Below, one piece after another: positions 40,157 to 54,168 of a stretch of 64,000 nucleotides of DNA. The DNA is taken from positions 192,001 to 256,000 of IMG/VR virus record IMGVR_UViG_3300028886_000028; one strand, given 5' to 3'. The notes beneath the pieces were generated by a model. The model worked only from the letters and a program-made list of their open reading frames with translations. It was not told the DNA's origin and did not search any database. The position numbers and the translations under genes were made by a program. How positions within the stretch are numbered: the stretch's first letter is position 1; the number at the start of each line of letters is the position of its first letter. The DNA comes from a virus (taxonomy: Duplodnaviria; Caudoviricetes).

Positions 40157-40957
40157 ATGGGTAAAAAAAAGAATTTAAAAGGATTAGATGAATTTGACCT
40201 AGATTTTATTAATGAAAAACTTGGCAAAAGTGTTACTGATTACATAAGTCCTGAAGATGTTGTGAGTGCTTCAGCATTAAAAACATTGAATTTTAAATTG
40301 GAAATAAAATGTAAAAACGAAAAGCAAAAAGAGTTTTTAAAAAGCCTTAAAGAAAAAAAGCATCAAATTTGTTTTGCAAGCGGAGCAGCCGGGGCAGGAA
40401 AGTCTTATATTAGTTTAGCTTATGCGTTAAGCGCTTTAAAAGATGGAGGAAATCAATTTGATAAGATAATAATAATAATTCCAACATGCCCGGCTGGAAA
40501 TATGGACATAGGCTTATTAAAAGGCACTTACGAAGATAAGATTAGACCTTATTTGGAAGCAGATACTTATACAATGGAAAAGATATTGAAAAACAGTGGA
40601 AATAATATACCAAGTGAAACAGTAAAAACATTAATTTCTCAAGGATATATAGACTACCAATTGGTCAATTTTGCGAGGGGAAAAACATTTGATAATTGCA
40701 TTGTGCTTATAAATGAAGCAGAAAACTATTCAAGAGAAGAAATGCTGTTACTTTTAACACGTATGGGAGAAAATTCAAAATTTATAATATCCGGAGACCC
40801 TATACAAAAAGATAGAAAAGATTTGAAAAAAAATGGCGATGGATTAACATATGCAATAGAACATTTAAAAAATTTGGAAGAAACAAGTATTACTACATTT
40901 ACAAATGATGACATTGTAAGAAACCCATTAATTTCTAAAATTCTAGAAAACTGGTAA
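40157..40957 (+). CDS. phoH: PhoH-like ATPase
   Basis: GAAGAGKSY, FARGKTFDN, INEAEN, LLTRMGENSK, SGDPIQKD, DDIVRNPLI. Confidence 0.9.
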   Translation: MGKKKNLKGLDEFDLDFINEKLGKSVTDYISPEDVVSASALKTLNFKLEIKCKNEKQKEFLKSLKEKKHQICFASGAAGAGKSYISLAYALSALKDGGNQFDKIIIIIPTCPAGNMDIGLLKGTYEDKIRPYLEADTYTMEKILKNSGNNIPSETVKTLISQGYIDYQLVNFARGKTFDNCIVLINEAENYSREEMLLLLTRMGENSKFIISGDPIQKDRKDLKKNGDGLTYAIEHLKNLEETSITTFTNDDIVRNPLISKILENW

Positions 40958-40966
40958 ATATTTATA
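40958..40966 (+). promoter_or_regulatory. Putative late promoter ATATTTATA
   Basis: Immediately after phoH stop, 28 nt before ATG 40995. Confidence 0.6.
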
Positions 40967-40994
40967 TTATAAATAATAATATATATATTATATC

Positions 40995-41414
40995 ATGAAT
41001 AATAAAAGATTTAATGAAATTATAAAAGAATCAATAGATTATGTAGTTAATTCAGCAATCCCAACATTTGTAAAGCCTAATACTACTTATGATTATTCTA
41101 CTGCTAATGATGAAGAAGAACTAAATGATTCTAATTCTTTAGTATTATCTTATAATGATGGTACTGTTAAAAAATGTAATATAAAATATATTCATGCTTT
41201 TAATAGCGGACATGACCATATGATAATTAATATGTTAGATGGGGCTATATTTTACCATTACATGGGAAAAAATATCGAAGTTAGCGAAAAAGAACACAAT
41301 CGTATAGTAAAAAAAATGAGATGGTGGGTTGAAGAATATAAAGGCGAAGAGTATAAAGGGTACGTTGAAGAGGTTGCAAAAATATTAAAATATGCAGAAA
41401 AATACAATAGATAA
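40995..41414 (+). CDS. Hypothetical protein with IxE leader (candidate internal head protein)
   Basis: MNNKRFNEIIKESID; own late motif and terminator. Confidence 0.6.
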   Translation: MNNKRFNEIIKESIDYVVNSAIPTFVKPNTTYDYSTANDEEELNDSNSLVLSYNDGTVKKCNIKYIHAFNSGHDHMIINMLDGAIFYHYMGKNIEVSEKEHNRIVKKMRWWVEEYKGEEYKGYVEEVAKILKYAEKYNR

Positions 41415-41417
41415 ATG

Positions 41418-41449
41418 AAGGGAACTATCAATTTGTGATAGTTCCTTTT
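41418..41449. terminator. Bidirectional terminator
   Basis: AAGGGAACTATCA/TGATAGTTCCTTT between convergent genes. Confidence 0.8.
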
Positions 41450-41828
41450 ATCTTTTTCTTCCACATTCGTCACCGCATAATCCGTTAATCTTACATTTTT
41501 TACAAGGATTTTCAACCGGATGAACTTCTCCTCCTATCTTTTCATATCCATTATTACCAGAATAATATCCTTTTACATGTGGTGGATTATAATCGTTTAT
41601 CGCTAGTTTATATCCATCATGCACTAATCTTGAAAACCACCTATACAATGAATCTTCAGGAAGCCTTGAAACATGGTAAACATTACTTAGTATTTTTTCA
41701 CTTGGCCCATTTGTTGGATACAAATAGCCATTTATTAATTGCATATAAATTGTTTTATCTGTTGATTCATTTATGGACTCAATTGCTTTTAAAAGTTTTG
41801 ATTCCGTTAATATTATAGTTTTTTTCAT
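41448..41828 (-). CDS. Hypothetical protein with LTES leader and C-terminal Cys4 motif (candidate internal head protein)
   Basis: MKKTIILTESKLLKAIESINES; CKKCKINGLCGDEC. Confidence 0.65.
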   Translation of the reverse strand: MKKTIILTESKLLKAIESINESTDKTIYMQLINGYLYPTNGPSEKILSNVYHVSRLPEDSLYRWFSRLVHDGYKLAINDYNPPHVKGYYSGNNGYEKIGGEVHPVENPCKKCKINGLCGDECGRKR

Positions 41829-41845
41829 TATGACGTTTTTATTTA

Positions 41846-41853
41846 ATAAATAT
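41846..41853 (-). promoter_or_regulatory. Putative late promoter ATATTTAT (minus strand)
   Basis: ATAAATAT on + strand, 17 nt from minus-strand ATG. Confidence 0.6.
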
Positions 41854-41884
41854 TTTGTTTTTTAATATTTTTTTTGTATATTTG
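41854..41884 (+). promoter_or_regulatory. Bacteroidetes primary-sigma promoter
   Basis: TTTG-N19-TATATTTG. Confidence 0.75.
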
Positions 41885-41901
41885 TAATAAAACATATAGA
41901 A

Positions 41902-42756
41902 ATGGATGAAAAAACTAACATAATTGTTGTACCTAATGAGCCGAAAGAAGTAACTGAAATAAGAAATAAAATATTAGATGAGTTTAAAGATTTAGTATTT
42001 GATGAAGAGCCTCATAAATATTACATAGGAGATAAAGAATTACCAAGTGTTTCTCATGTAACTCATAAATATCTTGTTCCGTTTGATAGTGATAATGTTG
42101 CTGAAAAATATGCAGAAAAAAATGGAATGACTAAAGAATATTGGCTTGACCAATGGAAATTCAATAATTTAAAGGCTACAACATCAGGAACATTGGTACA
42201 TGCATATGGAGAATCTTTGGGATGGTTAAAGAACGGGCATCCAGAAAAAATAACAGAAGAAAACATATGCAAATACATAAAAGAAAAGAATTGGTTAATT
42301 CCAACTAGGAAAAAAGAAGAAGCAATATTAAAATTTTATAACGAATTAAATGATAATCTTCATTTCGTTCTTGCTGAAACTAAAGTATATACAGGAAAAA
42401 ATAAAGAACTAACAAATCTCAAACAGGATTACGCAGGTACTTTTGATATTTTGTTTTATTATAAAGACCCAAAAGATGATTCAAAAAGTGGGCTTGTAAT
42501 AATGGATTTCAAAACAAATAAAGAGTTATATAAAGAATTCAATAGGTCAAATGGAATTATGATGTACGCTCCATTCACAGATATGTATTCAGAACCTTTT
42601 GGCGCGTATGTTTTACAGCTTTCAGCGTATCAACTACCATTAGAAGATATTGGGTTAAAAGTCATAGCAAGAAGAATTATACACCTTAAAGATGATGGAA
42701 CATATGAATTAATACCTGTAAAAGATGTTACAAAACAATTAAGAGAAGTGCTATAA
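41902..42756 (+). CDS. PD-(D/E)XK exonuclease (Cas4/RecB-like phage type)
   Basis: FDEEPHKY, LPSVS, GTLVH, YAGTFD, IMDFKT, LQLSAY. Confidence 0.8.
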   Translation: MDEKTNIIVVPNEPKEVTEIRNKILDEFKDLVFDEEPHKYYIGDKELPSVSHVTHKYLVPFDSDNVAEKYAEKNGMTKEYWLDQWKFNNLKATTSGTLVHAYGESLGWLKNGHPEKITEENICKYIKEKNWLIPTRKKEEAILKFYNELNDNLHFVLAETKVYTGKNKELTNLKQDYAGTFDILFYYKDPKDDSKSGLVIMDFKTNKELYKEFNRSNGIMMYAPFTDMYSEPFGAYVLQLSAYQLPLEDIGLKVIARRIIHLKDDGTYELIPVKDVTKQLREVL

Positions 42757-43475
42757 TGAAAGTCGGAGATATTGTATATTATAAAGGAAAAGAATACTAT
42801 CTCTATAGTTTATATAAAGGAGATTTGTGTAGAATAGTTAGACTCAGGGATGGCAAATATACTCATACTAAAAATGGCGAAGAATGTTTGAATGCTAATA
42901 TAGTTAATTTAAATATAAATGAATTAAAGTATATGCTTGATTGTAAAAAAGTTGAATCATTAGTTGAAGAAAAAATGAACAATAAAAAAACAATAACAGT
43001 ATTACCTCAACTGAAATTTGATGAGTATTGCATTAAAACTGGATTGGATGATTCTAATGTAGAGAATGCAAATGATAAGGCGTTTATCTCCATAATTGGA
43101 ACTCCTGAATGTTTAATCTATTATCTTGATGAGGGCGATACAAAGCATCATTTTAAGGGTAATCATTCAAATGTGTTGAACCTTGATTTTGATGATATAG
43201 GATATGATGAATTCGAATGGGAAGGCCATATTTTTAAGGGTATGTCAATGGAACAGGCGCAAGAGCTGTTTGAATTCATAGAGAAAAACATAGATAAATC
43301 ATTTATAATCCATTGTAGAGCAGGCTTTAGTAGAAGTCAGGCTGTAGGTAATTTTATAAATGATTTCTATAAGGGAGAATTTTATTCAGATACTCTTTTA
43401 TCGCATCCTAATAAGGATGTTTATAGGAAGCTAAGTAGGTGCTATTATAAAAAATATAGGCCTGACTATGAGTGA
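42756..43475 (+). CDS. Dual-specificity/tyrosine phosphatase-like protein
   Basis: IIHCRAGFSRS (HCX5R), LDFDDI, HPN. Confidence 0.8.
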   Translation: MKVGDIVYYKGKEYYLYSLYKGDLCRIVRLRDGKYTHTKNGEECLNANIVNLNINELKYMLDCKKVESLVEEKMNNKKTITVLPQLKFDEYCIKTGLDDSNVENANDKAFISIIGTPECLIYYLDEGDTKHHFKGNHSNVLNLDFDDIGYDEFEWEGHIFKGMSMEQAQELFEFIEKNIDKSFIIHCRAGFSRSQAVGNFINDFYKGEFYSDTLLSHPNKDVYRKLSRCYYKKYRPDYE

Positions 43476-43515
43476 TTTATTGATTTTATAGGAAAATAAT
43501 TTAATTTTTAAAAAG

Positions 43516-44067
43516 ATGAACGTTGACAAAATTTGCGAAGAAATAATATGGTATTCAAAAAAAGATGAAAAAACAGGAATGTGGATAATTCCTATTGTTA
43601 TTGATTTCGATTTTACTATTACAAAAGATTCTTCGTGGTTAAAAGGAACATTTACAGAAAATGACCATTGTATAGAAACAATGAAAAAATGGGAAAAAGA
43701 ATTTGGAGTCAAATTTATTCTTGAGACAATGCGTGGGGAAAAACATATTCAGCCAGCAATTGATTTTTGCAATTCAAAAGGGATAGGATTTTTTGGAATA
43801 GGAAGAAACCCTTTGCAAGACGCAGATGGGGACACCACATGTAAATGTTGGGGTATATGGGACATTGATGATAGGAATGCCGGAGTTTTTCTTGAAACTC
43901 CCAAAAATGGAAGACCTTATATTAATTGGATTTTGTTAGATATGTACCTTACTCCAATTTTGAAAAATGTAGTTAAGAGAATTTCAGAAGTTGAAGAAAG
44001 AGTTCTTGAGGCTAAAAGACTGGCAACAGAAGAAAATAAATATGTAGAAATAGATTATAGTTATTAA
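43516..44067 (+). CDS. HAD-superfamily hydrolase
   Basis: IVIDFDFTI, ILETMR, IDDRNAG. Confidence 0.7.
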   Translation: MNVDKICEEIIWYSKKDEKTGMWIIPIVIDFDFTITKDSSWLKGTFTENDHCIETMKKWEKEFGVKFILETMRGEKHIQPAIDFCNSKGIGFFGIGRNPLQDADGDTTCKCWGIWDIDDRNAGVFLETPKNGRPYINWILLDMYLTPILKNVVKRISEVEERVLEAKRLATEENKYVEIDYSY

Positions 44068-44070
44068 ATC

Positions 44071-44289
44071 ATGGATGAAACAAACGTATACATTTTTAAA
44101 AAGAAATATGAGTGCCAATTAGGCAAAATAGATGAAGGCAGAGCAATAACCACATTCAGGGGAATGATGTTTATTGATGGAGGTATGATTCCTGAACCTT
44201 ATGCCTCGGATATAAAAAAACTTTTTACAGATGACAAGTTTGTAAAAGAATATATCAGGGTTGAAAAAGCAATTAAAAATAAAGTATAA
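44071..44289 (+). CDS. Hypothetical protein
   Basis: 72-aa ORF in operon. Confidence 0.55.
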   Translation: MDETNVYIFKKKYECQLGKIDEGRAITTFRGMMFIDGGMIPEPYASDIKKLFTDDKFVKEYIRVEKAIKNKV

Positions 44290-44302
44290 AATATAAAACA
44301 TT

Positions 44303-44716
44303 ATGAAAACAAAATTTTTTAGTTTGTGGGCAGAGGCCATAGATACAAACGGCGAGAAGCACTATGTTACAGTTGTTGGCAAGTTTACTCAAAATTATTT
44401 GCCGAAAGAAGTCACGCAGGAAGTTCCTGTGGAAATTAAGCCAGGAAGTGTTGTTAAAGGAAAATTATCATTCAATAAAAGAACTTTACACAGGGCTTTG
44501 ACGGTTGGAGTTTCAATTTGCCATCCTCTTGATGAATTTGACGAAGAGTTTGGAGTTGAACTAGCAAAAGCCCGTATTGAAAAAGGAGAAGATGCTGGAA
44601 CAATCGAAACAAATGATGTTACTATGTTAACTGAAGATTTGATTATGGCTGAACTGATTGGAAAACTTAGCTATATATGCAATAACATCGACAATTATTT
44701 AGGCAATAACATATAA
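44303..44716 (+). CDS. Phage hypothetical protein
   Basis: GVSICHPLDEFDEEFGVELAKAR motif common in phage small proteins. Confidence 0.65.
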   Translation: MKTKFFSLWAEAIDTNGEKHYVTVVGKFTQNYLPKEVTQEVPVEIKPGSVVKGKLSFNKRTLHRALTVGVSICHPLDEFDEEFGVELAKARIEKGEDAGTIETNDVTMLTEDLIMAELIGKLSYICNNIDNYLGNNI

Positions 44717-44735
44717 GTTGGCCCACAATAATTAT

Positions 44736-44770
44736 AAAATGCAGTCAGAAATGGCTGTATTTTTTTTTTT
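44736..44770 (+). terminator. Intrinsic terminator
   Basis: ATGCAGTCA-GAAA-TGGCTGTAT plus long T run. Confidence 0.75.
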
Positions 44771-44778
44771 GTTTACTG

Positions 44779-44786
44779 ATATTTAT
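44779..44786 (+). promoter_or_regulatory. Putative late promoter ATATTTAT
   Basis: After terminator, 22 nt before ATG 44809. Confidence 0.6.
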
Positions 44787-44808
44787 TAGAAAAAAATACG
44801 TATAGAAT

Positions 44809-45321
44809 ATGAATAAAAAACTTATAAGATTAACAGAGAATGACCTTCATAGTATCGTTAGAAAAGCTGTAAACAAAATCATTAGAGAATCACAAGGATA
44901 TGTTCCTAATGATGGAAATGGAATGGTTGGAGGTTCTTGGGGTAGTAGAACATTATCTGCCACATATTATTTATACAATTATATAGATGATGCTTTATAT
45001 GATGCTGGTGCATTTGAAAATGAAGAAGATGGCAACAAAATTGATGAATTTATTAAACGTTGTGATTCAGAAGGCATTTTCAATGTAAAAGTAAATGTTG
45101 TAGAATCGTATGACAATTCAGTTGGAATTGATTATGATGCAGAAATAGAAAATATTGATTATGATGCAATTGATAGGGTTGAAAAGGTACTAAAAAATTT
45201 ACCAACAAAAAATCTAAAATTCAAGAAGGCAGCTTTGAATGGTCTTAAAACAGGGGTTGATAGACTTGAATCAGATAAATCAGTTATCGAAGATTTAGAT
45301 ATTGATTATGGCGAATACTAG
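44809..45321 (+). CDS. Acidic protein with IRLTE leader (candidate internal head protein)
   Basis: MNKKLIRLTENDLHSIVRKAVNKIIRES followed by D/E-rich body. Confidence 0.65.
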   Translation: MNKKLIRLTENDLHSIVRKAVNKIIRESQGYVPNDGNGMVGGSWGSRTLSATYYLYNYIDDALYDAGAFENEEDGNKIDEFIKRCDSEGIFNVKVNVVESYDNSVGIDYDAEIENIDYDAIDRVEKVLKNLPTKNLKFKKAALNGLKTGVDRLESDKSVIEDLDIDYGEY

Positions 45322-45445
45322 TATTAGTAAAACATTTTGGGTCAACTTCTATGTTATTGCCATTATTTATAAAAAAGTTGATTTTTTCTTTCTGTAGCGA
45401 TATTTACTACGTCAAAAAGAGGATAGATATAGTAAAAATACATCC

Positions 45446-45501
45446 TTTAACATTATTTAACGCGGAATATTTGTTTATTCCGTGTTTTTTTTGTATCTTT
45501 G
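45446..45501 (+). promoter_or_regulatory. Bacteroidetes promoter with tandem TTTAAC upstream
   Basis: TTTAAC x2, TTTG-N20-TATCTTTG. Confidence 0.75.
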
Positions 45502-45531
45502 CTATAAATGTGTACATATGCTATGTTATTA

Positions 45532-45627
45532 TGACAAAATGGCAGAACAAGTTTGTCACATATGTTAAAAAAATGTTAAAAATTAACTGACAAAATGGCA
45601 TAAAACATTGTTTGGCACGTTATTTGT
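45532..45627 (+). promoter_or_regulatory. Sigma54-like -24/-12 element with two TGACAAAATGGCA boxes
   Basis: TGACAAAATGGCA at 45532 and 45588; TGGCACG-N4-TTGT at 45613-45627. Confidence 0.5.
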
Positions 45628-45630
45628 GAT

Positions 45631-45870
45631 ATGAAAGTATATAAATTTGATAAAGAAAGCAATATTTGTTACAATATTATAATAGAAGAAGATAGTGGAG
45701 AAATAAGAGTTGCTTTTGTTGGCAGCAAACACATCACTGAATATATAGCACACGTTGTTAAACCTGAATATGGTTTTTCAAGGTTAATATATGGAAGTGG
45801 GTCATCAATGCCGTATAAAGATAGTAATGGTAAGTTATGCGAAAAATATTTTTTGATATATGAAGATTGA
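45631..45870 (+). CDS. Hypothetical protein
   Basis: 79-aa ORF overlapping next start. Confidence 0.45.
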   Translation: MKVYKFDKESNICYNIIIEEDSGEIRVAFVGSKHITEYIAHVVKPEYGFSRLIYGSGSSMPYKDSNGKLCEKYFLIYED

Positions 45871-46162
45871 TAAAAAATATATTTTCAGACGCTTCTTTAA
45901 ACGCTTCTTTAAAGAAGAATTTCTTGAAATAGAGAATAAAAAACGGGCTATAAAGATTGCCAATGAAAATCTTCAATCTGTTAAAATAGAATTAAAAAAT
46001 TCTATTGAACGGGTAAATAAACTTATTGAAGAAAATACCATATTACGGCGTGAGAATGGTCAATTAAGAAACGAGGTAGATAAAACTAAAAAAGATATTA
46101 TTAATAGCAATGAATATAGAACGTTGCTTGAAAAATATAATGAATTATTATATAAAAAATAA
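45860..46162 (+). CDS. Coiled-coil hypothetical protein
   Basis: Heptad-rich 100 aa. Confidence 0.55.
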   Translation: MKIDKKYIFRRFFKRFFKEEFLEIENKKRAIKIANENLQSVKIELKNSIERVNKLIEENTILRRENGQLRNEVDKTKKDIINSNEYRTLLEKYNELLYKK

Positions 46163-46183
46163 ATTTTTAAAATAAAAACAATT

Positions 46184-48070
46184 ATGTCTAAAATTATTGG
46201 AATTGATTTAGGAACTGGTAACAGTTGTATTTCTGTTTTTGAAGGTGGAGCACCTGTTGTTGTAGTTAATTCTGAAGGAAAACGTACAACTCCTTCTGTA
46301 ATTGGTTTTGACAAGGGAGAAATTAAAGTTGGTGAAAGTGCAAAACGTCAGGCTGTAACTAATCCTAAGAACACCGTTCACTCAATTAAGCGTTTTATGG
46401 GTAACACCTATAAAGAATGTGAAGAAGAAGCTACAAGAGTTCAGTACGAAGTTGTTAATGACGGTGGCTTTCCTCGTGTAAATATTGACGGTAAAAAATA
46501 TACACCGCAGGAGTTATCTGCTATGATTCTTCAAAAAATGAAGAAAACAGCAGAAGACTATCTGGGAGAAGAAGTAAAAGAAGCAGTGATTACTGTTCCT
46601 GCATATTTTTCTGATTCTCAACGTCAAGCAACTAAAGAAGCAGGCGAAATTGCTGGGCTAAATGTGAAACGTATTATTAACGAGCCAACAGCAGCAGCAC
46701 TTGCATACGGTATTGATAAAGCAAATGAAGACCGCGTTGTTGCTGTAATTGACGCAGGTTGCGGAACATATGATGTTTCTATACTTTCTTTTGGCGGTGG
46801 TGTGTTTGAAGTTCTTTCTACCAATGGCAACACTCACCTTGGAGGTGATGATTTTGACCAGGTAATAATTGATTGGCTGGTTGATGAATTTATGCATAAA
46901 GAAGGGGTAGATATTTCAAAAGACCCAATGGCTATGCAGCGTTTGAAAGAAGCCGCTGAAAAGGCTAAGATTGAACTTTCAACCTCAAAAAGCACAGACA
47001 TTAGTCTTCCTTATATTGTGGCTGTTAGTGGAGAGCCAAAGCATCTTAATGAAACTCTAACTCGTGCTAAGTTTGAGCAACTTGCAAGTAAGTTAATTTC
47101 TCTGCATAGAGGCCCTATTATTGAAGCATTAAAGGCAGCATCATTGGACGCTAAAGATGTTAACGATGTAATACTTGTAGGAGGTACTACACGTATACCG
47201 GCTATTCAAAATCTTGTTAAAGATATATTTGGAAAAGAGCCATCACACGCAGTTAACCCTGATGAAGCAGTGGCTTTAGGGGCATCAATACAAGGCGCAG
47301 TTCTTAATAAAGAGTCTGGAGTGGGAGATATTGTTCTTCTTGATGTTACTCCACTTACGTTAGGAATTGAAACTATGGGTGGAGTAATGACAAAGTTGAT
47401 TGAAGCAAATACTACTATCCCATTTAAGAAAAGCGAAACATTCTCAACAGCAGCTGATAATCAAACTGAGGTAACAGTACATGTTTTGCAAGGTGAGCGT
47501 CCTATGGCGGCAGATAATAAGTCTATTGGAAAGTTCAATCTAACAGGAATCATACCAGCAAGGAGGGGAGTACCTCAGATTGAAGTAACATTCGACATTG
47601 ATGCAAATGGCATTCTCACTGTGTCTGCAAAGGATAAGGCTACTGGCCGTGAGCAGAAGATTCGTATTGAGGCTTCAAGTAATTTGTCGAAAGATGAAGT
47701 TGAGCGTATGAAAGCTGAAGCCGCTGCAAATGCTGATGCGGATAAAAAAGTACGTGAAACTGCTGACGCGATAAACAAGGGCGAATCTATTGCTTTCTCT
47801 AATGAAAAAATGCTAGAAGAACAAAAAGATAATGTCAACGAGGAAGAAAAATCTAAGATTGAAGGCCTTATAAAAGACATGAGAGAAGCAGTAGCAAATA
47901 AAGATGTAAAACGTATTGGAGAAATAGAAGAGGCATTTAAAACAGCTTGGAATTCTGTTTCAGAACGTGTATATAGCACTCAGTCAGCGCAGCCAAATGA
48001 TAGCACTGTTAATACAGAGCAGACTAACGCTGAAAATGTACAAGATGCTGAATATACAGAAGTTTCGTAA
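46184..48070 (+). CDS. dnaK: Chaperone Hsp70
   Basis: [67 protein letters not shown]. Confidence 0.97.
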
Positions 48071-48090
48071 ATTCAGTTACTAGCATAAAC

Positions 48091-48129
48091 GCCCCAAAAT
48101 GGTAAACTCTGTTTTGGGGCATTATTTTT
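48091..48129 (+). terminator. Terminator-like hairpin
   Basis: GCCCCAAAA/TTTTGGGGC. Confidence 0.65.
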
Positions 48130-48162
48130 AATGGAAAATTTCTTTTTTTCCAAAAAAAAGTG

Positions 48163-48170
48163 TATATTTG
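48163..48170 (+). promoter_or_regulatory. Bacteroidetes -7 element
   Basis: TATATTTG; -33 element degenerate. Confidence 0.55.
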
Positions 48171-48175
48171 TATAT

Positions 48176-48619
48176 ATGACATTAAAACAGTTATTGTTAA
48201 GGTATTTAAAAGAAAAAGGATTTTATAGCATTTTAAGCGAGAAAGCATATTCTAGCTTAGTTAGAAACAACATAAGAAATGGTAAAGAGTCTTTTTTTCT
48301 TGCTAATTTTATAATTGTGTTAAGTGATTCCATGAAACGTTATGAATGGCAGAAATATCAAAGTAATGTATTAAAATTTTTTAACGAATGGGCTAGAAAT
48401 GAATACAGCGTAAAATCAGGTGACACAATAACTGTTAATACAATTGATGGGAAGTATTCATATGATTTTATAGTTACATGCGTTAATGAATATACTTTAT
48501 CTGTTTTATTAGAAAATGGAAATTCAATAGATTTAGATAGAATTATTGCGGTTAATGGAAAGCCTACTGATTTTTTACATGGCTGGCATTTTAAAAAAAA
48601 TATTGATTACATATATTAG
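48176..48619 (+). CDS. Hypothetical protein
   Basis: ATG 48176 (MTLKQ) lies downstream of promoter, so preferred to 48131. Confidence 0.6.
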
Positions 48620-48621
48620 GA

Positions 48622-49704
48622 ATGAATAATATGAAAGATTATTACAATATATTAGGCATAACAGAAGAAGAAAAAAAATTGAGCAATGAAGAGTTTGCTA
48701 AAGTTTTAAAGAAAAAATATCGTTCAATCTGTTTGAAGTATCATCCTGACAAAAATCCTGGCAATAAGGAGGCAGAAGAAAAATTTAAAGAAGCAGCTGA
48801 AGCCTATTCTGTTCTTAGTGATGAAAAGAAAAGAAAAGAATATGACAATCCAGTAACAGGAGGAAACAATTTTAATTCAGGCTTCAATTTCAACGATTTC
48901 AATATTGATGAAATACTCAATAGCTTTGGGTTTGGTAGCATGGGTGGTTTCAGAAGCAGTGTGAAAACAGTGCAAATAGGAGGCAATATAAGACTTAGAA
49001 TGCGTTTATCGTTGAAAGAAATGTATGATGGCATAAAAAAGAAAATAAAATACCATAGAAATAATAAATGCACTGATTGTGATGGTAAAGGCACTACTAA
49101 AGATAGTAAAACAGAAAGATGCAAACATTGTGGAGGGACAGGCAGGCTTTATACCAATAATGGATTCTTCCAACAAATAACTACGTGTCATTATTGTGGC
49201 GGTAGTGGAAGTGTTACAACTAACCCTTGCCCTAGTTGTGGGGGAAATGGTATTGTTGATACCGTTCAAGAAATAGAAATTGATGTTCCAAAGGGGGCTT
49301 TCCAAGGTATGCAATTAACAGTACATGGTTATGGTCATGCTCCTAAAAATATGAACGGGCAATTTGGTGATTTAATAATTGAGATACTAGATAAAGAAAA
49401 TGATGAAAAATACGAAAGGGAAGGCAATGATTTAAAAATGGACATAGAAGTTCCAGTAATAGATGCTATACTTGGGTGTGATATTACAGTTGAAACCATT
49501 AACGGCAAAAAATTGAAAGCTAAAGTGCCAAGTGGTATTGAAGACGGATATACAATGCGTTTTTCTAAATATGGTATGCCCATATATGGAAGAAATGACT
49601 TCGGCGATTTGTACGGCGTTATAAAAATTAAAATGCCAAAAAAGATAAATGACGAAGAAAGAAAAGTTTTAGAAGGTTTAAAAAAGAATAATAATTTCGC
49701 GTAA
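48622..49704 (+). CDS. dnaJ: Chaperone DnaJ
   Basis: J domain with HPD; G/F region; four CxxCxGxG repeats; C-terminal domain. Confidence 0.95.
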
Positions 49705-49713
49705 AAATATATT

Positions 49714-50772
49714 ATGAGACAAGAAAAAAATAGTTCGTTTGAAAGATATTGTCAATATACTATAAAAGGCGATGGGTATTACCCCATGCACAGTACAGTA
49801 ACAATAATTCCTGCCGGCTTTTATAAACCTGCTCAGGATTCGTATAGTGGGGAATATTTTTTGCAGAAAAAAACGGTAATAACCCCCAAACTTTATCTTT
49901 TGCCAAATGAAGCAAAAGAGATTATTTTTAATGACATACAACGATTCTGGGAATCAGAAGAAAGGTATAGAAAATTTCAAAGTGTATACAAAAGGAATAT
50001 TTTGTTATACTCTATACCAGGTAACGGAAAAACTTGTCTTATTAATTTAATGTGTAAAGAACTTATTGAAAAATATGATGGCATAATTATTTGCATTGAT
50101 ACACATAAAGAGTTGGATTATTACACTAAAGTAATGAGTAAATTTAGACAAGTAGAGCCTAATAGGAAAATTATAACTATAATAGAGGATTTTGAAAGGC
50201 TTGCAAAGGACGATTATTATTCTGCTCTTCTTTTACAAATATTAGATGGTAATGAACAATTGGATAGTATTGTTACTATTGCTACTACAAATTACCCTGA
50301 GAATTTGGAAAAAAGATGGACATGTAGGCCAAGCAGATTCAATCTAATTCTTGAATATAAAAAGCCTGATGCTAAAGTAAGGGAATATTACATATATAAT
50401 AAACTTAAAGACGGGGGTATTAACGTTGAATCCGATGAAGTTAAAAACGACATACGACGTTATGTAGAAAAAACAGAAGGCTTTACTTTCGACTTTGTTA
50501 AAGAGGCTATACAAGGTATATATGTAGATAACATATCAGAAGAAGAAATATTCGAAAGAATCGAAAAATCAAGGAAAAATAATGGCTCTTATAAAATAAC
50601 AGAAGACGATGGGAGGCAAATTGGTTTCCATGATGAAGGAGAATGTTGTTGCAATGAAGGAGTGATAACTCATACAGAGCATGGGCCAATAATTTATCCT
50701 GAAGAATATGAGGAATATGATGATATGTATGAGAGAGACGATGTTATCATAAAACCATTGCATGAACATTGA
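49714..50772 (+). CDS. AAA+ ATPase
   Basis: LLYSIPGNGKT, IIEDFE, ATTNYPE, RPSRF. Confidence 0.85.
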   Translation: MRQEKNSSFERYCQYTIKGDGYYPMHSTVTIIPAGFYKPAQDSYSGEYFLQKKTVITPKLYLLPNEAKEIIFNDIQRFWESEERYRKFQSVYKRNILLYSIPGNGKTCLINLMCKELIEKYDGIIICIDTHKELDYYTKVMSKFRQVEPNRKIITIIEDFERLAKDDYYSALLLQILDGNEQLDSIVTIATTNYPENLEKRWTCRPSRFNLILEYKKPDAKVREYYIYNKLKDGGINVESDEVKNDIRRYVEKTEGFTFDFVKEAIQGIYVDNISEEEIFERIEKSRKNNGSYKITEDDGRQIGFHDEGECCCNEGVITHTEHGPIIYPEEYEEYDDMYERDDVIIKPLHEH

Positions 50773-50777
50773 AAAAT

Positions 50778-51383
50778 ATGATTAAAATTATAAGTGATAC
50801 TGATTTATATGAAGATATTGATAAATATGATGTAATTTTAATAGGGACAAATATATACTGTAGTATGTCTCAGGGGTTTCAGAGGAAAATAATGTTAAAT
50901 TTTCCATATGTTCAAGATAAAAATATGAGTACAAAGTATGGCGATGAAGCTAAACTAGGAACAATAATTGAATGTAAAAAAGAAGGAAACCCAACATTTG
51001 TATTACTATATATAAATAAAGGAAATTTTAGGCCGGATTTAAAAAAAGATTATTTATCATATGAATCACTTGAAAAAGTATTAAAAATAATTAATATTTT
51101 ATACAAAGGAAAAAAAGTGGCCAGCACCATAATAGGCGCAAGTAAATTTGACGGAAATGGAGACAAAGATAAAATATTAAATATAATTTCTAATAATACA
51201 TCAAATATTGATTTAACTTTATATGATTATGTTCAATTAAGCCGTTCGGAAGAATTAAAAAAAATAAGAACGAATGAGTTGAAAATTAAAGAAACAGATT
51301 TAGATGCTTATTATGATGCAGTCAAAAAAAGGAAAGAAGAGGCAAACAAAAGAATAAAAAATAATGGACACGCTAGATATTAA
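50778..51383 (+). CDS. Divergent macro-domain protein
   Basis: DL...DVILIGTNIYCSMSQG...GDEAKLG...SYESL..VL...IIGASKFDG follows the macrodomain layout. Confidence 0.55.
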   Translation: MIKIISDTDLYEDIDKYDVILIGTNIYCSMSQGFQRKIMLNFPYVQDKNMSTKYGDEAKLGTIIECKKEGNPTFVLLYINKGNFRPDLKKDYLSYESLEKVLKIINILYKGKKVASTIIGASKFDGNGDKDKILNIISNNTSNIDLTLYDYVQLSRSEELKKIRTNELKIKETDLDAYYDAVKKRKEEANKRIKNNGHARY

Positions 51384-51388
51384 GAATT

Positions 51389-51766
51389 ATGATTAAAAGA
51401 ATTGAAATTACAGAAGATATTTTAAAAGTTATACCTATTATATTTTTACAAGAAAAAGTTGGACTTGATGGTAGTAAAGAAGTAAATATTGATTCGAATC
51501 ATTTATATAGTATAGGATTTGGATTAATTGAAGATTTGGCTATGGCTTTAGGAATATATGATAGGGCAATAAAAGGTACAGAAGATGACCCCGAAGGTAG
51601 AGCCTTTAGCGAAGAAGATACGAACTATATATTGTCGCTTCATAAGTATGTTTCTGATAACATATATTATATAGAATCTCTTATACATCAATTTGTGGTT
51701 AAAGGCGGCTTGGAGGTAGGAGTATATAAAACAAAGGATAATGAATTAATTTGGCTACGAGAGTAG
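51389..51766 (+). CDS. Hypothetical protein
   Basis: 125-aa ORF in operon. Confidence 0.6.
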   Translation: MIKRIEITEDILKVIPIIFLQEKVGLDGSKEVNIDSNHLYSIGFGLIEDLAMALGIYDRAIKGTEDDPEGRAFSEEDTNYILSLHKYVSDNIYYIESLIHQFVVKGGLEVGVYKTKDNELIWLRE

Positions 51767-51769
51767 ACT

Positions 51770-51825
51770 TTTAACATTTTTTAACTGAAAATATTTGTTT
51801 ATGTCAAAAAAAAGCAGTACCTTTG
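51770..51825 (+). promoter_or_regulatory. Bacteroidetes promoter with tandem TTTAAC
   Basis: TTTAAC x2, TTTG-N20-TACCTTTG. Confidence 0.8.
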
Positions 51826-51848
51826 CAAACGATTATGAAGAACCAACA

Positions 51849-52094
51849 GTGTTAGCAACATATCCTAAAAAAGGAATACCTGTGCTTACTGGGGAAGCAG
51901 CAGAGAGATTTATAAAGATTGCTGAAGAAAATGAAAGAAAGGCTAAAGAAAGAGAAAATAGGCCCGTAACAAAAGAAGAGGCTAAAAAAATTATAGGCTT
52001 CAAAAAAGTAATGCTAGAGTATGAAAAAAACAATATTGAAAAATTAGAAAAGGAAATAAAAAAATTAGAAGAAATTATTAATTCACATAATTAA
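51849..52094 (+). CDS. Small hypothetical protein (IPVLTGEAAERF motif)
   Basis: Track start 51795 lies inside the promoter; first in-frame start downstream is GTG 51849. Confidence 0.5.
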   Translation: MLATYPKKGIPVLTGEAAERFIKIAEENERKAKERENRPVTKEEAKKIIGFKKVMLEYEKNNIEKLEKEIKKLEEIINSHN

Positions 52095-52621
52095 TGGCAA
52101 AAAACAAAAACATTTTAAACACGCCAAAATTTCGTATCAATGACGAAATAACAGGCTACAATGATGTAAGAATCGTTGGAGAAGGAATTGAAAGTAAAGT
52201 TGTTGGACTATCTGAGGCTAAAAAAATAGCCGATGAAATGGAAATGGATTTAATTGAAATTAATTCATCGTCCAAGCCTCCAATTCTTAAAATTGCTTCT
52301 TATGAAAAAATGATTTATGAATTAAAAAAAGCCGCTAAAAAAAACAAGCAAGCATCAAAGCCATTAAAGGAAGTACAGTTATCAGTAAATATTACTGACC
52401 ATGACTTAGCGACAAAGGCTAATAATGCAAGGAAATTCATTGAAAGTGGTAGCAAGGTTAAAGTTACACTAACAATGAAGGGACGAGAATTGGCTAGAAG
52501 GGATGACAATAAACGTTCTATACTTGAATTTATTGTAATGCTTGAAGATGTTGCAGTACCAGAGTCACAACCACGCGATGATGGTAATAAAACAATTGTT
52601 ATACTTAAAAAGAAAGGTTAA
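52094..52621 (+). CDS. infC: Translation initiation factor IF-3
   Basis: RINDEI...VRIVG, DLIEI...KPPILKI..Y.K..YE.KK, KEVQLS.NI.DHDL.TK, F...GSKVKV....KGRE. Confidence 0.92.
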   Translation: MAKNKNILNTPKFRINDEITGYNDVRIVGEGIESKVVGLSEAKKIADEMEMDLIEINSSSKPPILKIASYEKMIYELKKAAKKNKQASKPLKEVQLSVNITDHDLATKANNARKFIESGSKVKVTLTMKGRELARRDDNKRSILEFIVMLEDVAVPESQPRDDGNKTIVILKKKG

Positions 52622-52629
52622 ATTAAAAT

Positions 52630-53589
52630 ATGGCAGTTACACCTAACATTAAAACAACAAACAACTATTTTGAGAGGACTGAAACTCTTGTAAAATACTA
52701 TCATGATGCTAACGAGTATGATGTGATGGATGCCGATAAAGAAAAAGAAGTTTTTATGCTTCTTGATGAAGGCAAGAAAAACATCAAAAAAGCGCATGAT
52801 ATTGGCGATAAAAAACTAGAGGCAGAATATAAAAAAGAAGTTGCGTCTCTTCGTGACTTTATCATAAATTCAAACCTTCGTTTTGTTATTTCCGTCGCAA
52901 GAGTGTATGCCACAAATAATAACATTCTTGATTTAATTGACGAAGGTAATATTGGCCTCATTGAGGCAGTTGACACTTTCGATGTGAGCCTTGGCAATCG
53001 TTTCCAAACTCATGCAATTTATCTAATTAGGCAGAAAATAAATTTGTTCCGCCAAAATGATGATTTGCTTATCCGGAAAAATAACGAGTCTAAAACTTAT
53101 CATATTATTTCTAATATGACTAACAAGTTCATACAAGAGTTCCACAGAGAGCCTAATAGTGATGAATTGAAGGACTATATTAATAAGCATTATCCTAACG
53201 CGAAAATTAAAGATTCGGCTGACGTTCTTAATGTAAGAGTTTCTTCAATTGATGAACCAGTTAGTTCTGATGATGATGATGCTAATATTGGTAACATAAC
53301 AGCATTTAATGCTTACAGCGCTTCAGCAAATGATTATGAGAATAGAGTGGAAATTGAACACCTTAGTTCTCTAGTCAATACTTTAATGAGAAATTTATCC
53401 GAAAGGGATAAAAAAATTATTAAGATGTATTTTGGAATAGAACAGAAATTTAACGCACCCTGTCCTGTTTCAGAAATTGCTGAAAAAACAGACCTTACAA
53501 AAGAACGTGTTCGTCAAATTGTGGCAGATGTGCAGAAGAAAATGAGAGACGAATATGAAAAGAATATTGAAAGGTTTTTAAATAATTAA
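52630..53589 (+). CDS. RpoD/SigA-family RNA polymerase sigma factor (no region 1.1)
   Basis: SNLRFVISVAR.Y, DLIDEGNIGLIEAV..FD, LSERDKKII.MYFG, LTKERVRQI. Confidence 0.9.
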   Translation: MAVTPNIKTTNNYFERTETLVKYYHDANEYDVMDADKEKEVFMLLDEGKKNIKKAHDIGDKKLEAEYKKEVASLRDFIINSNLRFVISVARVYATNNNILDLIDEGNIGLIEAVDTFDVSLGNRFQTHAIYLIRQKINLFRQNDDLLIRKNNESKTYHIISNMTNKFIQEFHREPNSDELKDYINKHYPNAKIKDSADVLNVRVSSIDEPVSSDDDDANIGNITAFNAYSASANDYENRVEIEHLSSLVNTLMRNLSERDKKIIKMYFGIEQKFNAPCPVSEIAEKTDLTKERVRQIVADVQKKMRDEYEKNIERFLNN

Positions 53590-53615
53590 AGGGCAACAAA
53601 AGTTGCCCTTTTTTT
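53588..53615. terminator. Bidirectional terminator
   Basis: AAAGGGCAAC-AAAA-GTTGCCCTTT between convergent genes. Confidence 0.85.
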
Positions 53616-54141
53616 ATATTTGTTCTTTCGCTAGTTCTCTACGTATTTTATATGCTTCTTTTTTCTTAAGCCTATATTTAGAACCATTATCATTTCTAAG
53701 ACCCTTAATCTTTTTTCTTAACTGTGATTGAGCACCTTGAGGCGTATGCCCAGGATAAACACGTTTAGCTAATGCAGCAACATCAATCAAATCGCTGTCA
53801 ATGATGTCAGCCAAATCTTCTGCGTCCTGGTTGTTAAGGTTTGGGTTAGTTTCTCTATCAAGTTTTGCATTGAAATCAGTCCTTAAACCATTTTTAAGTT
53901 TTTTACCATTCTTAATTATATCCTTTGCCTTTTTCACCTTTTCTTTTGCTGTTTTCTTTCCTTTTTTCGCAGCATCCCTAACATCTTTTTTAAGCCTTTT
54001 AACGTCTTTTTTCTCTTTTTTTTCTTTTTTACTTATTTCTGAAATGATGCATTCATCAATAATAGAATCCATTCTATTTTCATTAACTATATCATATATG
54101 TAATTGTTGATGCTTTCAGCTATAATTTTGTTTATATTCAT
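53614..54141 (-). CDS. Lys-rich protein with IAE leader and possible C-terminal HTH (candidate internal head protein)
   Basis: MNINKIIAESIN; KKEKKEKK... tract; IDVAALAKRVY....AQSQLRKKIKG. Confidence 0.65.
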   Translation of the reverse strand: MNINKIIAESINNYIYDIVNENRMDSIIDECIISEISKKEKKEKKDVKRLKKDVRDAAKKGKKTAKEKVKKAKDIIKNGKKLKNGLRTDFNAKLDRETNPNLNNQDAEDLADIIDSDLIDVAALAKRVYPGHTPQGAQSQLRKKIKGLRNDNGSKYRLKKKEAYKIRRELAKEQI

Positions 54142-54159
54142 AATGTTTTTATATTTTTA

Positions 54160-54168
54160 TATAAATAT
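54160..54168 (-). promoter_or_regulatory. Putative late promoter ATATTTATA (minus strand)
   Basis: TATAAATAT on + strand, 18 nt from minus-strand ATG. Confidence 0.6.

Follow-up and report, generated by a model that had tools for sequence, protein, structure and literature searches.

A conserved leader peptide on small late-type genes of a rumen jumbo phage as a candidate capsid-targeting tag, and its occurrence in an IS1595-type cassette

The 401-kb phage studied here comes from the cattle rumen, has a T4-type head and is a T4-like jumbo phage infecting rumen Prevotella. A preliminary description of part of its genome (a window of 64,000 nucleotides, by which the whole stretch of DNA that was analysed is meant) had grouped four small genes as one set with a common leader. 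As a set they do not hold together, the real leader being found in genes 2 and 3. These two belong to a large family of otherwise unrelated proteins that begin with a conserved helix, and we give roughly even credence to a reading in which the four are separate late-transcribed genes rather than one four-part system, and in which the leader is a capsid-targeting tag removed by a protease. Gene 3 is, in addition, the passenger of a cassette derived from IS1595, as judged from its ends, and a leader gene is likewise found in the parent insertion sequence on a Prevotella chromosome.

The leader family

The leader is a conserved helix of about 26 residues with a consensus close to M-x-K-K-L-I-R-L-T-E-S-D-L-H-K-I-I-K-E-S-V-N-K-I-L-K-E, followed within the family by a flexible linker and then by an unrelated body. 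The helix is amphipathic, with a heptad-like spacing of its hydrophobic residues. Most leaders hold the tripeptide [L/I]-x-E at two or three fixed sites (around residues 10, 19 and 27), compared with a rate of 1.4 per 100 residues in the proteome; the glutamate of the first and the last site is invariant or nearly so, and the middle site is not constant. The conserved residues use varied synonymous codons, both serine codon families included, which shows selection to act on the leader peptide rather than on the DNA sequence. Several leader genes whose bodies differ share a near-identical 5' UTR, ending AATACGTATTATAAT, both in this phage and among Prevotella copies.

Gene 2 (41448..41828, - strand, 126 aa) is a member of this family with a Cys-rich C-terminus and a leader HMM E-value of 1e-11, and its homologues retain the N-terminus and the body alike. 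Gene 3 (44809..45321, + strand, 170 aa) is a canonical member (E 9e-19), whose structure model consists of a helix at residues 10-28, a disordered segment at 28-41 and a folded, compact body at 44-166. The claim of a shared leader is thus upheld for these two, while gene 4 has its second half only and gene 1 is weak. Scanning the genome and its relatives with a leader HMM, as had been proposed, brought out a family of 8-19 copies per complete genome: about 18 ORFs match at E < 1e-4 in this genome, and the four complete genomes hold 19, 8, 10 and 17 copies. In public data, 5,327 protein clusters match among 1.84 billion representatives. The leader lies at the very N-terminus in about 70% of the best 150 of these 5,327 clusters, many database proteins bear it internally or several times, and in one protein of a relative both ends bear a copy; being internal or repeated in so many proteins, it is not a strictly N-terminal signal.

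No model in Pfam or PHROG covers the leader, and no paper describing it was found. Searched by tblastn, a set of 50,697 phage records that took in the T4-type phages gave one weak match, in an uncultured 484-kb phage; the leader is absent from related cultured phages and has no detectable similarity in cultured T4-type phages. The bodies of genes 1-4 have no Pfam or PHROG match over threshold and no recognisable function, and no likeness among them is apparent by inspection, without pairwise comparison. Nothing points to the anti-defence role that had been suggested for any of the four.

A late-type promoter box

On its own strand, each of the four genes is preceded by the octamer ATATTTAT, at 40958..40965 (+) for gene 1, 41846..41853 (-) for gene 2, 44779..44786 (+) for gene 3 and 54161..54168 (-) for gene 4, with 29, 17, 22 and 19 nt, respectively, between box and ATG. 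The four ORFs, their N-termini and these boxes (spacing 17-29 nt) are thus as first described, and so are the terminators abutting the genes. These include a bidirectional hairpin common to the convergent genes 1 and 2 (41415..41451), a hairpin within the cassette of gene 3 that belongs to a recurrent family in the genome (44736..44763, + strand), a terminator 3' of the cassette (45459..45486, + strand) and a terminator that acts in both directions and separates gene 4 from the sigma-factor gene (53588..53611).

Across the whole window the octamer shows no overall enrichment (24 occurrences versus 19.5 expected), and genome-wide it is strongly biased in position. It lies 8-60 nt upstream in the sense orientation of 61 of the 459 genes, against 20 of 459 preceded by its reverse complement within the same range, and the distances peak at 22-33 nt ahead of the ATG; the form that is enriched has A or T directly after ATATTTAT. 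The genes that it precedes include those for portal, protease, scaffold-like, sheath, tail and Ig-domain structural proteins, whereas a host-type TAnnTTTG box precedes genes for ligase, exonuclease, ATPase and similar functions, and the two boxes occur together at just one gene in the genome. The distribution of ATATTTAT is that of a putative promoter for late or virion genes. The T4 late promoter TATAAATA was also considered and was rejected, as it precedes 24 genes, about the 20 of the reverse-complement control. Leader genes are associated with ATATTTAT throughout this genome (odds ratio 10.7, p 3e-6), in agreement with the co-occurrence that had been predicted.

The neighbours of the four genes encode PhoH, an exonuclease, DnaK and DnaJ (46184-49704), an AAA ATPase, IF3 and a sigma factor. 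By these identities, the placement of the four among early genes is roughly right; genes 1 and 2, however, lie at the margin of a block likewise bearing the late motif.

Genes 1 and 4

Gene 1 (40995..41414, + strand, 139 aa) has an N-terminus that weakly resembles half a leader. Its E-value against the leader HMM is 8.5, a position-specific matrix of the second half of the leader ranks it 19 of 459 (p 0.009, not significant after multiple testing), and a profile-profile alignment with the leader (hhalign) gives P 5e-4, weaker than for gene 4. Its one diverged homologue is 52% identical overall and wholly identical at residues 4-20. Its membership of the leader family, as judged from these comparisons, is doubtful.

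Gene 4 (53614..54141, - strand, 175 aa, body pI 10) consists of a short half-leader, a Lys-rich helical stretch and a putative XRE-like HTH domain at residues 103-175. It also scores poorly against the leader HMM (E 1.4) and ranks 43 of 459 with the matrix of the second half (p 0.027, not significant after multiple testing), and the N-terminus of its family aligns to leader positions 13-29 in a profile-profile comparison (P 5e-5). Its orthologues keep the N-terminal pattern and the box alike, the latter being retained before two of them. In the HTH-like part, modelled with a pLDDT of about 85, VIA-align superposes the C-terminus on C.EcoT38IS with Z 5.9 and an rmsd of 2.1 A over 60 residues, and many XRE proteins score 5-5.7. 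More generally, the last 70 residues superpose on XRE or lambda-repressor-like HTH proteins (controller C, Aca) with Z 5.0-5.9 and rmsd 2.1-2.9 A over 56-60 residues, and this fold dominates the match list. Unlike those proteins, gene 4 adds a half-leader, a long Lys-rich helix and a late-type promoter, and the Z-scores are modest. Foldseek gave no match for the C-terminus, and Pfam gave NNH6 alone, under the cut-off, with no match to any Pfam HTH model. Gene 4 is kept in relatives, adjoining the IF3 and sigma genes; being conserved, basic, HTH-like and syntenic in this way, it is a core gene and not the interchangeable cargo that it had been taken for.

Gene 3 and its IS1595-type cassette

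Gene 3 is the sole gene of a 660-bp cassette, which contains gene 3 and its signals alone and no transposase. The cassette ends in inverted repeats of 28 bp, and a target site of 8 bp is perfectly duplicated on either side of it. The left terminal inverted repeat (44702..44729, + strand) and the right one (45334..45361, - strand) match at 25 of 28 positions and are flanked by the two copies of the duplication ATTATTTA (44694..44701 and 45362..45369). The left repeat provides the final four codons and the stop of the upstream gene 44303-44716. A second insertion of the cassette is found in another phage with a different target duplication, TAATAATT, and the cassette has inserted independently in the two phages, having moved no fewer than two times. 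No exact match to the pattern of an empty site came up in scans of viral and metagenome contigs, which may omit records very close to this genome.

A full IS1595 bounded by the ends of the cassette and flanked by the 8-bp duplication TAAATAAT is present in a Prevotella MAG (contig L142, 448-2980). Its ORF at 1773-2747 matches DDE_Tnp_IS1595 (5.8e-45) and Zn_ribbon_IS1595, and the element carries a canonical leader gene as a passenger, beside a GH26 gene. L142 is the one host contig verified as chromosomal; other MAG contigs may be mis-binned phage DNA. In bacterial genome assemblies, at least 8 of 30 loci with the inverted end have leader genes nearby, most of them with a ATATTTAT-type box. 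The present genome holds one intact cassette and two solo ends for about 19 leader genes.

The cassette resembles IS1595-family elements that carry passenger genes, and transposase-less mobile insertion cassettes (MICs), in having imperfect ends of about 28 bp, an 8-bp duplication and no transposase, and in that the same ends also bound a full element encoding DDE_Tnp_IS1595 and Zn_ribbon_IS1595. It differs from them in its passenger, a phage late gene with a phage-type promoter and a shared leader, and in that the element here shuttles between jumbo phages and Prevotella chromosomes. The leader had been called portable, which finds direct support for gene 3, yet through transposition, as the inverted ends and target duplication indicate.

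Head protease, capsid and comparison with known systems

The genome encodes a T4-type prohead protease (Peptidase_S77, PF03420, 5.8e-23) and a gp23-type capsid protein (PF07068, 4.7e-65). The protease is present in all three complete leader-bearing relatives, and leader genes cluster beside its gene in these complete relatives (G001, G015 and G029). Residues 58-61 of the capsid protein read I-Y-E and then A, and they lie upstream of the stretch aligning with residue 28 of mature T4 gp23. The T4-type protease and capsid, together with the position of the leader genes by the protease gene in relatives, make putative capsid targeting followed by cleavage the best reading of the leader. In the manner of the T4 capsid targeting sequence, the leader helix would dock the protein onto the prohead's scaffolding core. 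The S77 (gp21-type) protease would then remove the leader at [L/I]-x-E sites, and the body would stay in the head and be ejected with the DNA. Gene 4, with half a helix on a basic, HTH-like and putatively DNA-binding protein, may take the same route. Late timing, docking, cleavage, packaging and ejection of leader proteins are all steps that we infer. The proposal of a T4-like leader gains indirect support from the protease, the capsid, the [L/I]-x-E sites, the promoter link and the clustering; genes 1 and 4, on the other hand, lack a full leader. Two further points weigh on it: helices rich in Lys, Glu and Ile commonly contain the tripeptide [L/I]-x-E, and the occurrence of leader genes as IS1595 passengers in host chromosomes is not explained by a capsid tag alone.

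[quoted passage not shown] It is found on IPI, IPII, IPIII and Alt and is removed by the prohead protease gp21 (PMC3012670, PMC9026906); the internal proteins are diverse, the targeting sequence alone being conserved (PMC3012670). In the present phage, likewise, a short common N-terminal peptide with an L/I-x-E motif (a match in sequence) heads small late proteins that are unrelated over the rest of their length (genes 2 and 3, with about 17 more), a gp21-family protease and a gp23-type capsid are present, and the set of cargo is diverse with a quick turnover. The T4 tag, however, has 10 residues (PMC9026906) and one site, whereas the leader has about 26 residues and two or three candidate sites, shows no detectable similarity to cultured T4-type phage sequences, and also occurs internally, C-terminally and in tandem. 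Also unlike T4, carriers number about 19 per genome and form thousands of clusters in metagenomes, and some carriers have been moved by IS1595 cassettes.

In phiKZ, 201phi2-1 and SPN3US, the propeptides of head or inner-body proteins are cut after Glu by gp21-related proteases (PMC5694885, PMC7411985, PMC10052503, PMC9026906), and those of phiKZ hold several redundant cleavage sites (PMC9026906). The likeness to the present case lies in the jumbo genomes and would extend to the many head proteins processed after glutamate with redundant propeptide sites, and to a large bolus of ejected proteins. In those phages, by contrast, unrelated proteins do not share a single, strongly conserved propeptide and the cleavage motifs differ, and processing in the present phage is a prediction from sequence.

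Alternative explanations

We regard it as rather unlikely that the leader stays uncleaved and serves as a helix for assembly or oligomerisation, anchoring late proteins to another hub (capsid outside, neck, tail or a coiled-coil partner) so that they would be virion-associated or assembly factors and not internal, ejected cargo. Its amphipathic, heptad-like character, its company of late promoters near morphogenesis genes and its internal, C-terminal and repeated copies, which are more in keeping with a docking module than with a strictly N-terminal signal, all fit such a helix. The nearly invariant glutamates of the first and last [L/I]-x-E, the flexible linker behind the helix, the tight adjacency of leader genes to the protease gene and not to tail genes, and the T4 and phiKZ precedents favour a removable tag instead. 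It is quite improbable that the leader has no virion role and serves phage-chaperone recognition, regulation or degradation, or translation initiation, with promoter, 5' UTR and leader copied as a unit. The 5' UTR ending AATACGTATTATAAT ahead of different bodies and the phage DnaK and DnaJ encoded in the window would agree with this, as would the basic-hydrophobic start of the leader, which presumably resembles typical Hsp70-binding peptides. Against it, the synonymous codon variation indicates selection on the peptide, not the RNA, the leader co-occurs with the promoter class of virion genes and clusters by the prohead protease gene, and internal copies cannot serve translation initiation.

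Leader genes could also be mainly selfish or conflict cargo of IS1595, host copies being switched on by phage late transcription and loaded into heads to hitch-hike or sabotage. The IS1595 with a canonical leader gene beside a GH26 gene in a Prevotella chromosome, the leader genes close to the inverted end at 8 or more of 30 loci in bacterial assemblies and the repeated moves of the gene 3 cassette speak for this reading, which we hold very unlikely given the single intact cassette and two solo ends for about 19 leader genes, the stable place of leader genes next to the protease gene in several relatives and, among the MAG contigs, some of which are possibly mis-binned, the verification of L142 alone as chromosomal. 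Finally, there is scarcely any likelihood that the four genes are alike by chance, through N-termini that are rich in Lys, Ile and Glu, the genome being AT-rich, and through an upstream octamer that is common and likewise AT-rich. That the octamer is not enriched across the window and that genes 1 and 4 fail leader models built on this genome would be expected from chance, but the octamer is biased in orientation and distance, the leader recurs in thousands of proteins and the gene 4 orthologues retain N-terminal pattern and box. For genes 2 and 3, chance likeness is refuted by their leader HMM scores (1e-11 and 9e-19); for gene 1 it still stands.

Implications

If the leader loads heads, it would single out, by sequence alone, candidates for injected proteins by the thousand in uncultured jumbo phages of the rumen and the gut, would offer a catalogue in which to seek counter-defence and host-takeover factors, and would be a simple tag for packaging foreign proteins into Bacteroidota phages. 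If it is not a packaging tag, few other uncharacterised peptide modules of these phages are as widespread. Conceivably, though we consider it improbable, jumbo phages of the rumen and the Prevotella that they infect draw on a common pool of plug-and-play head cargo spread by transposons, in which the genes of IS1595 and of its transposase-less cassettes come with a late promoter, a conserved 5' UTR and a removable, capsid-loading leader, so that any such phage, or even a host chromosome during infection, could load virions with new proteins. No paper on IS1595 transfer of leader cargo genes was found in the literature. The link to IS1595 provides such cargo genes with a means of passing between phages and hosts, and the gene 3 cassette in the phage and its parent IS1595 in Prevotella are new here.

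The leader family

The four small ORFs of the window, namely gene 1 (40995-41414, plus strand), gene 2 (41448-41828, minus strand), gene 3 (44809-45321, plus strand) and gene 4 (53614-54141, minus strand), lie where the preliminary description had placed them and carry the N-termini quoted there. Their boxes and terminators also held up, but the claim that a single leader is common to all four did not. A regular-expression scan, followed by an HMM built from ten N-termini, places gene 3 (E 9e-19) and gene 2 (1e-11) in the leader family, but not gene 4 (1.4) or gene 1 (8.5). The description is partly confirmed and the proposal of a portable packaging tag partly supported; the four genes sort apart: genes 2 and 3 are members of the family, gene 4 is a core gene with half a leader and gene 1 shows a weak resemblance. 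Besides this sorting, the present analysis adds an intact cassette with target duplication around gene 3, the nature of gene 4 and the existence of two mutually exclusive promoter-like classes.

The source genome is one virus contig of 401,138 bp (31% G+C), of which the window represents bases 192001-256000. It contains about 18 ORFs matched by the leader HMM at E < 1e-4, all but one at the protein start, and a profile built from six leaders counts 19 copies in this genome and 8, 10 and 17 in its three complete leader-bearing relatives. Searched with that profile, 1.84 billion representative proteins yield 5,327 clusters at E <= 1e-3, of which 819 reach <= 1e-10, and all the family members looked up are unnamed metagenomic proteins. 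Pfam and PHROGs returned nothing above threshold for canonical leader proteins, and no model covers the leader; the literature searched for the leader peptide yielded nothing relevant, including a comparative paper on jumbo phages that does not mention it. In tblastn searches against cultured and deposited phages, gene 3 gave no match and the leader alone gave one weak match.

Synonymous codons vary at the conserved leader residues, with four Leu codons and serine encoded by both TCN and AGY, and therefore selection acts on the peptide. The tripeptide [L/I]-x-E, which is the motif of T4-type prohead proteases, occurs at leader residues ~10, 19 and 27, where the proteome mean is 1.4 such tripeptides per 100 residues; its Glu is invariant at the first site and nearly so at the last.

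As a separate observation, leader genes with unlike bodies are preceded by a near-identical 5' UTR ending in AATACGTATTATAAT, in this phage (upstream of genome positions 123720, 357795 and 386614 and of window position 44809), in other phages and in Prevotella copies (L142:1316-1341, in a Prevotella sp. contig). Given this common 5' UTR on different bodies, promoter, UTR and leader together seem to be the copied unit. Moreover, a leader-coding start is truncated by the contig end (genome 401070-401138) and another leader gene lies at genome 81-617, so the contig ends fall inside a leader-gene cluster.

Linkage to the phage head

All leader-bearing loci retrieved from IMG/VR (79/79) come from rumen-type samples, and the 31 longest leader-bearing contigs are nearly all fragments, whose completeness estimates imply genomes of ~300 kb. 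Each of the three complete genomes among these 31 encodes an S77 protease. In the relative G001, four leader genes stand between morphogenesis genes and the protease gene; in G015, the order is terminase, portal, a 537-residue protein, three leader genes interleaved with a conserved 145-residue gene, and protease; in G029, the protease gene is directly followed by a leader gene. In the genome studied here, the T4-type prohead protease is encoded at genome 25035-25733 on the minus strand (Peptidase_S77, E 5.8e-23) and the gp23-type major capsid protein at genome 27515-29551 (E 4.7e-65), with T4 gp23 and gp24 as its best solved relatives and with its closest deposited homologues in T4-like phages of Microcystis and Flavobacterium and in huge uncultured phages. 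Residues 58-61 of the capsid protein read I-Y-E followed by A, between a conserved N-terminal segment and one aligned to residue 28 of mature T4 gp23; a maturation cut like that of T4 would be expected in this region. Between the protease and capsid genes lies the gene of an acidic, scaffold-like protein of 521 aa (genome 25912-27477), whose N-terminus contains leader-like stretches of the form h-h-K-E-S/T-h that score below significance with the leader HMM.

The diverse internal proteins of T4 enter the head by means of a targeting sequence of 10 residues, which gp21 removes, and phages of the phiKZ type have redundant sites within their propeptides (PMC3012670, PMC9026906). Taken together, the linkage to head genes, the S77 protease, the capsid I-Y-E and these precedents make capsid targeting plus cleavage the best-supported reading of the leader, each functional step of which is inferred. 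The arrangement of leaders within proteins complicates this reading. The best-scoring leader match is internal in ~30% of the best 150 database matches, many database proteins have two to four matches, and a 667-residue protein of G029 has a copy at both ends, recalling T4 Alt with its propeptides at both termini (PMC9026906). Internal, repeated and two-ended leaders fit cleavable linkers, in which case proteins with multiple or internal leaders may be polyproteins, and they fit equally well a general docking helix. Such proteins, with two to four copies, a leader behind an N-terminal domain of 200 residues or one leader per end, comprise database proteins P0001-P0005, P0012, P0016, P0027 and P0070 and the product of locus L103:1463-3466. 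Under targeting plus cleavage, the principle would be the one known from the capsid targeting sequence of T4, applied on a far larger scale and with spread by IS1595 cassettes added.

Gene 3 and its IS1595-type cassette

For gene 3, structure prediction (mean pLDDT 79) gives a helix at residues 10-28, disorder from 28 to 41 and, at 44-166, a compact body modelled with confidence. Fold searches with gene 3 led to no clear match (best E 0.17 with Foldseek; best Z 6.1 with VIA, among mixed folds). Inverted repeats of 28 nt (44702-44729 and 45334-45361), matching at 25/28 positions, enclose the gene, its promoter box and a hairpin, and a perfect 8-bp duplication, ATTATTTA, stands on both sides of this transposase-less, 660-bp cassette. 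The gene upstream takes its last four codons and its stop from the left end, so the insertion occurred exactly at that stop codon; no empty site was found in the contigs scanned. A shorter copy of 609 bp, whose gene is 95% identical, is present in another phage contig, with different flanks and its own duplication, TAATAATT; the cassette studied here has 51 bases more, and within these lie the hairpin and the canonical box.

In bacterial genome assemblies, 30 stretches contain the same ends; nearly all come from rumen Prevotella or Prevotellaceae. Leader genes are found close to the end sequence in at least 8 of these 30 loci, mostly with a ATATTTAT-type box. A full IS1595 element of 2.5 kb is present in a Prevotella sp. 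MAG contig (JAEEXI010000015.1, L142:448-2980), with the duplication TAAATAAT and an adjoining GH26 glycosidase gene. It encodes an IS1595 transposase (DDE_Tnp_IS1595, 5.8e-45, plus Zn_ribbon_IS1595) and three passenger ORFs, one with a canonical leader, whose 5' UTR is that of several leader genes in this phage, and one with a short-leader-like start. The cassette of gene 3 is the only intact one in the phage genome; two further leader genes (genome 90888-91208 and 357795-358256) each adjoin one solo end, at genome 90789 and 358396, respectively, outside the window, and these look like decayed cassettes. Spread by IS1595 cassettes is an added route for leader genes, apparently absent from the literature.

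Gene 4 and its neighbourhood

The notion of gene 4 as an interchangeable cassette has to be abandoned in favour of a conserved core gene, probably encoding a DNA-binding protein with a half-leader, because its orthologues are syntenic and the protein combines an HTH-like domain, a half-leader and a basic mature part. Each of the three complete relatives has an orthologue, the ATATTTAT box is retained before two orthologues, and in 5/6 loci examined the gene is convergent to the sigma gene located after IF3. Compared by hhalign, the N-termini of the family match leader positions 13-29 (P 5e-5, probability 67%). The rank of gene 4 against a matrix of the second half of the leader (43/459) is not significant on its own. 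In a metagenomic protein, the start of the conserved C-terminal domain of gene 4 follows a canonical full leader (pairwise E 7e-8). Foldseek returned nothing for gene 4; residues 103-175 of the model (pLDDT ~85) superpose on the XRE/lambda-repressor-type HTH (Z 5.0-5.9, rmsd 2.1-2.9 A over 56-60 residues), which dominates the list of structural matches for this domain. The mature part is strongly basic, with a pI of 10 and 30% Lys plus Arg.

The non-structural neighbours of the four genes include PhoH, an exonuclease, DnaK, DnaJ, an AAA ATPase, IF3 and a sigma-70-family factor. Window 46184-49704 encodes full-length homologues of DnaK (628 aa) and DnaJ (360 aa) with an ORF of 162 aa between them. 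Window 52094-53589 encodes IF3 (both domains) and, directly after it, the sigma-70-family factor (regions 2 and 4), and this pair is kept in relatives together with the convergent gene 4.

Genes 1 and 2

Pfam and PHROGs gave nothing above threshold for any of the four proteins, and homologues of the bodies are few (one for gene 1, three for gene 2, four for gene 3 plus leader-only matches). The similarity of gene 1 to the leader is weak (P 5e-4), and its rank against the second-half matrix (19/459) is not significant on its own. No homologue appeared in 18 related phage records; its single diverged homologue is 52% identical overall and fully identical at residues 4-20, and the N-terminus is therefore constrained. 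No inverted ends were found around genes 1, 2 or 4. Genes 1 and 2 adjoin a block that also bears the late-type box. Compared with loci L099-L102, the stretch after the PhoH gene (window 40957-41900) differs in every relative examined, which makes it a variable spot in these genomes; as to a swap of cargo at the same locus, a leader gene is absent from this slot in every relative compared.

Promoter-like classes and terminators

The box ATATTTAT is on the coding strand of genes 1-4, with gaps to the ATG of 29, 17, 22 and 19 nt, respectively. Across the whole window it is not enriched (24 against 19.5 expected). Genome-wide, it lies 8-60 nt upstream in the sense orientation of 61/459 called genes, compared with 20/459 for its reverse complement, with distances peaking at 22-33 nt and an A-rich patch 12-14 nt past the box start. 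Genes downstream of it include those for portal, protease, the scaffold-like protein beside the capsid gene, tail sheath, a tail protein and an Ig-domain structural protein. A Bacteroidota-type TAnnTTTG box, often paired with an upstream TTTG, precedes 78 genes (18 for the reverse complement), among them DNA ligase, an exonuclease, ATPases and the large terminase. Along the genome, late boxes are found mainly in the first 240 kb and host-type boxes mainly beyond it. The two promoter-like classes, TTTG...TAnnTTTG and ATATTTAT, are mutually exclusive, with only one gene having both. Its biased position, the virion genes downstream and the location of the host-type box elsewhere suggest that ATATTTAT serves as a late promoter element of virion genes, and the sigma-70-family factor of window 52094-53589 is a candidate reader of it; the T4 late consensus TATAAATA is not enriched in this genome. 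The two boxes have the core ATATTT in common, TATATTTG against ATATTTAT; examples stand before window 41902 and 54260.

The terminators ascribed to the four genes are real, with hairpins located beside each: a bidirectional one at 41415-41451 common to the convergent genes 1 and 2, another at 53588-53611 common to gene 4 and the convergent sigma-factor gene, and those of gene 3 at 44736-44763 and 45459-45486. The first hairpin of gene 3 belongs to a recurrent family, ATGCAG...CTGCAT followed by a T run, with further members at genome 83334, 90090, 90827, 174914, 231113, 252510, 310058, 311887 and 327479, and a ATATTTAT box often follows such hairpins within ~15 nt.
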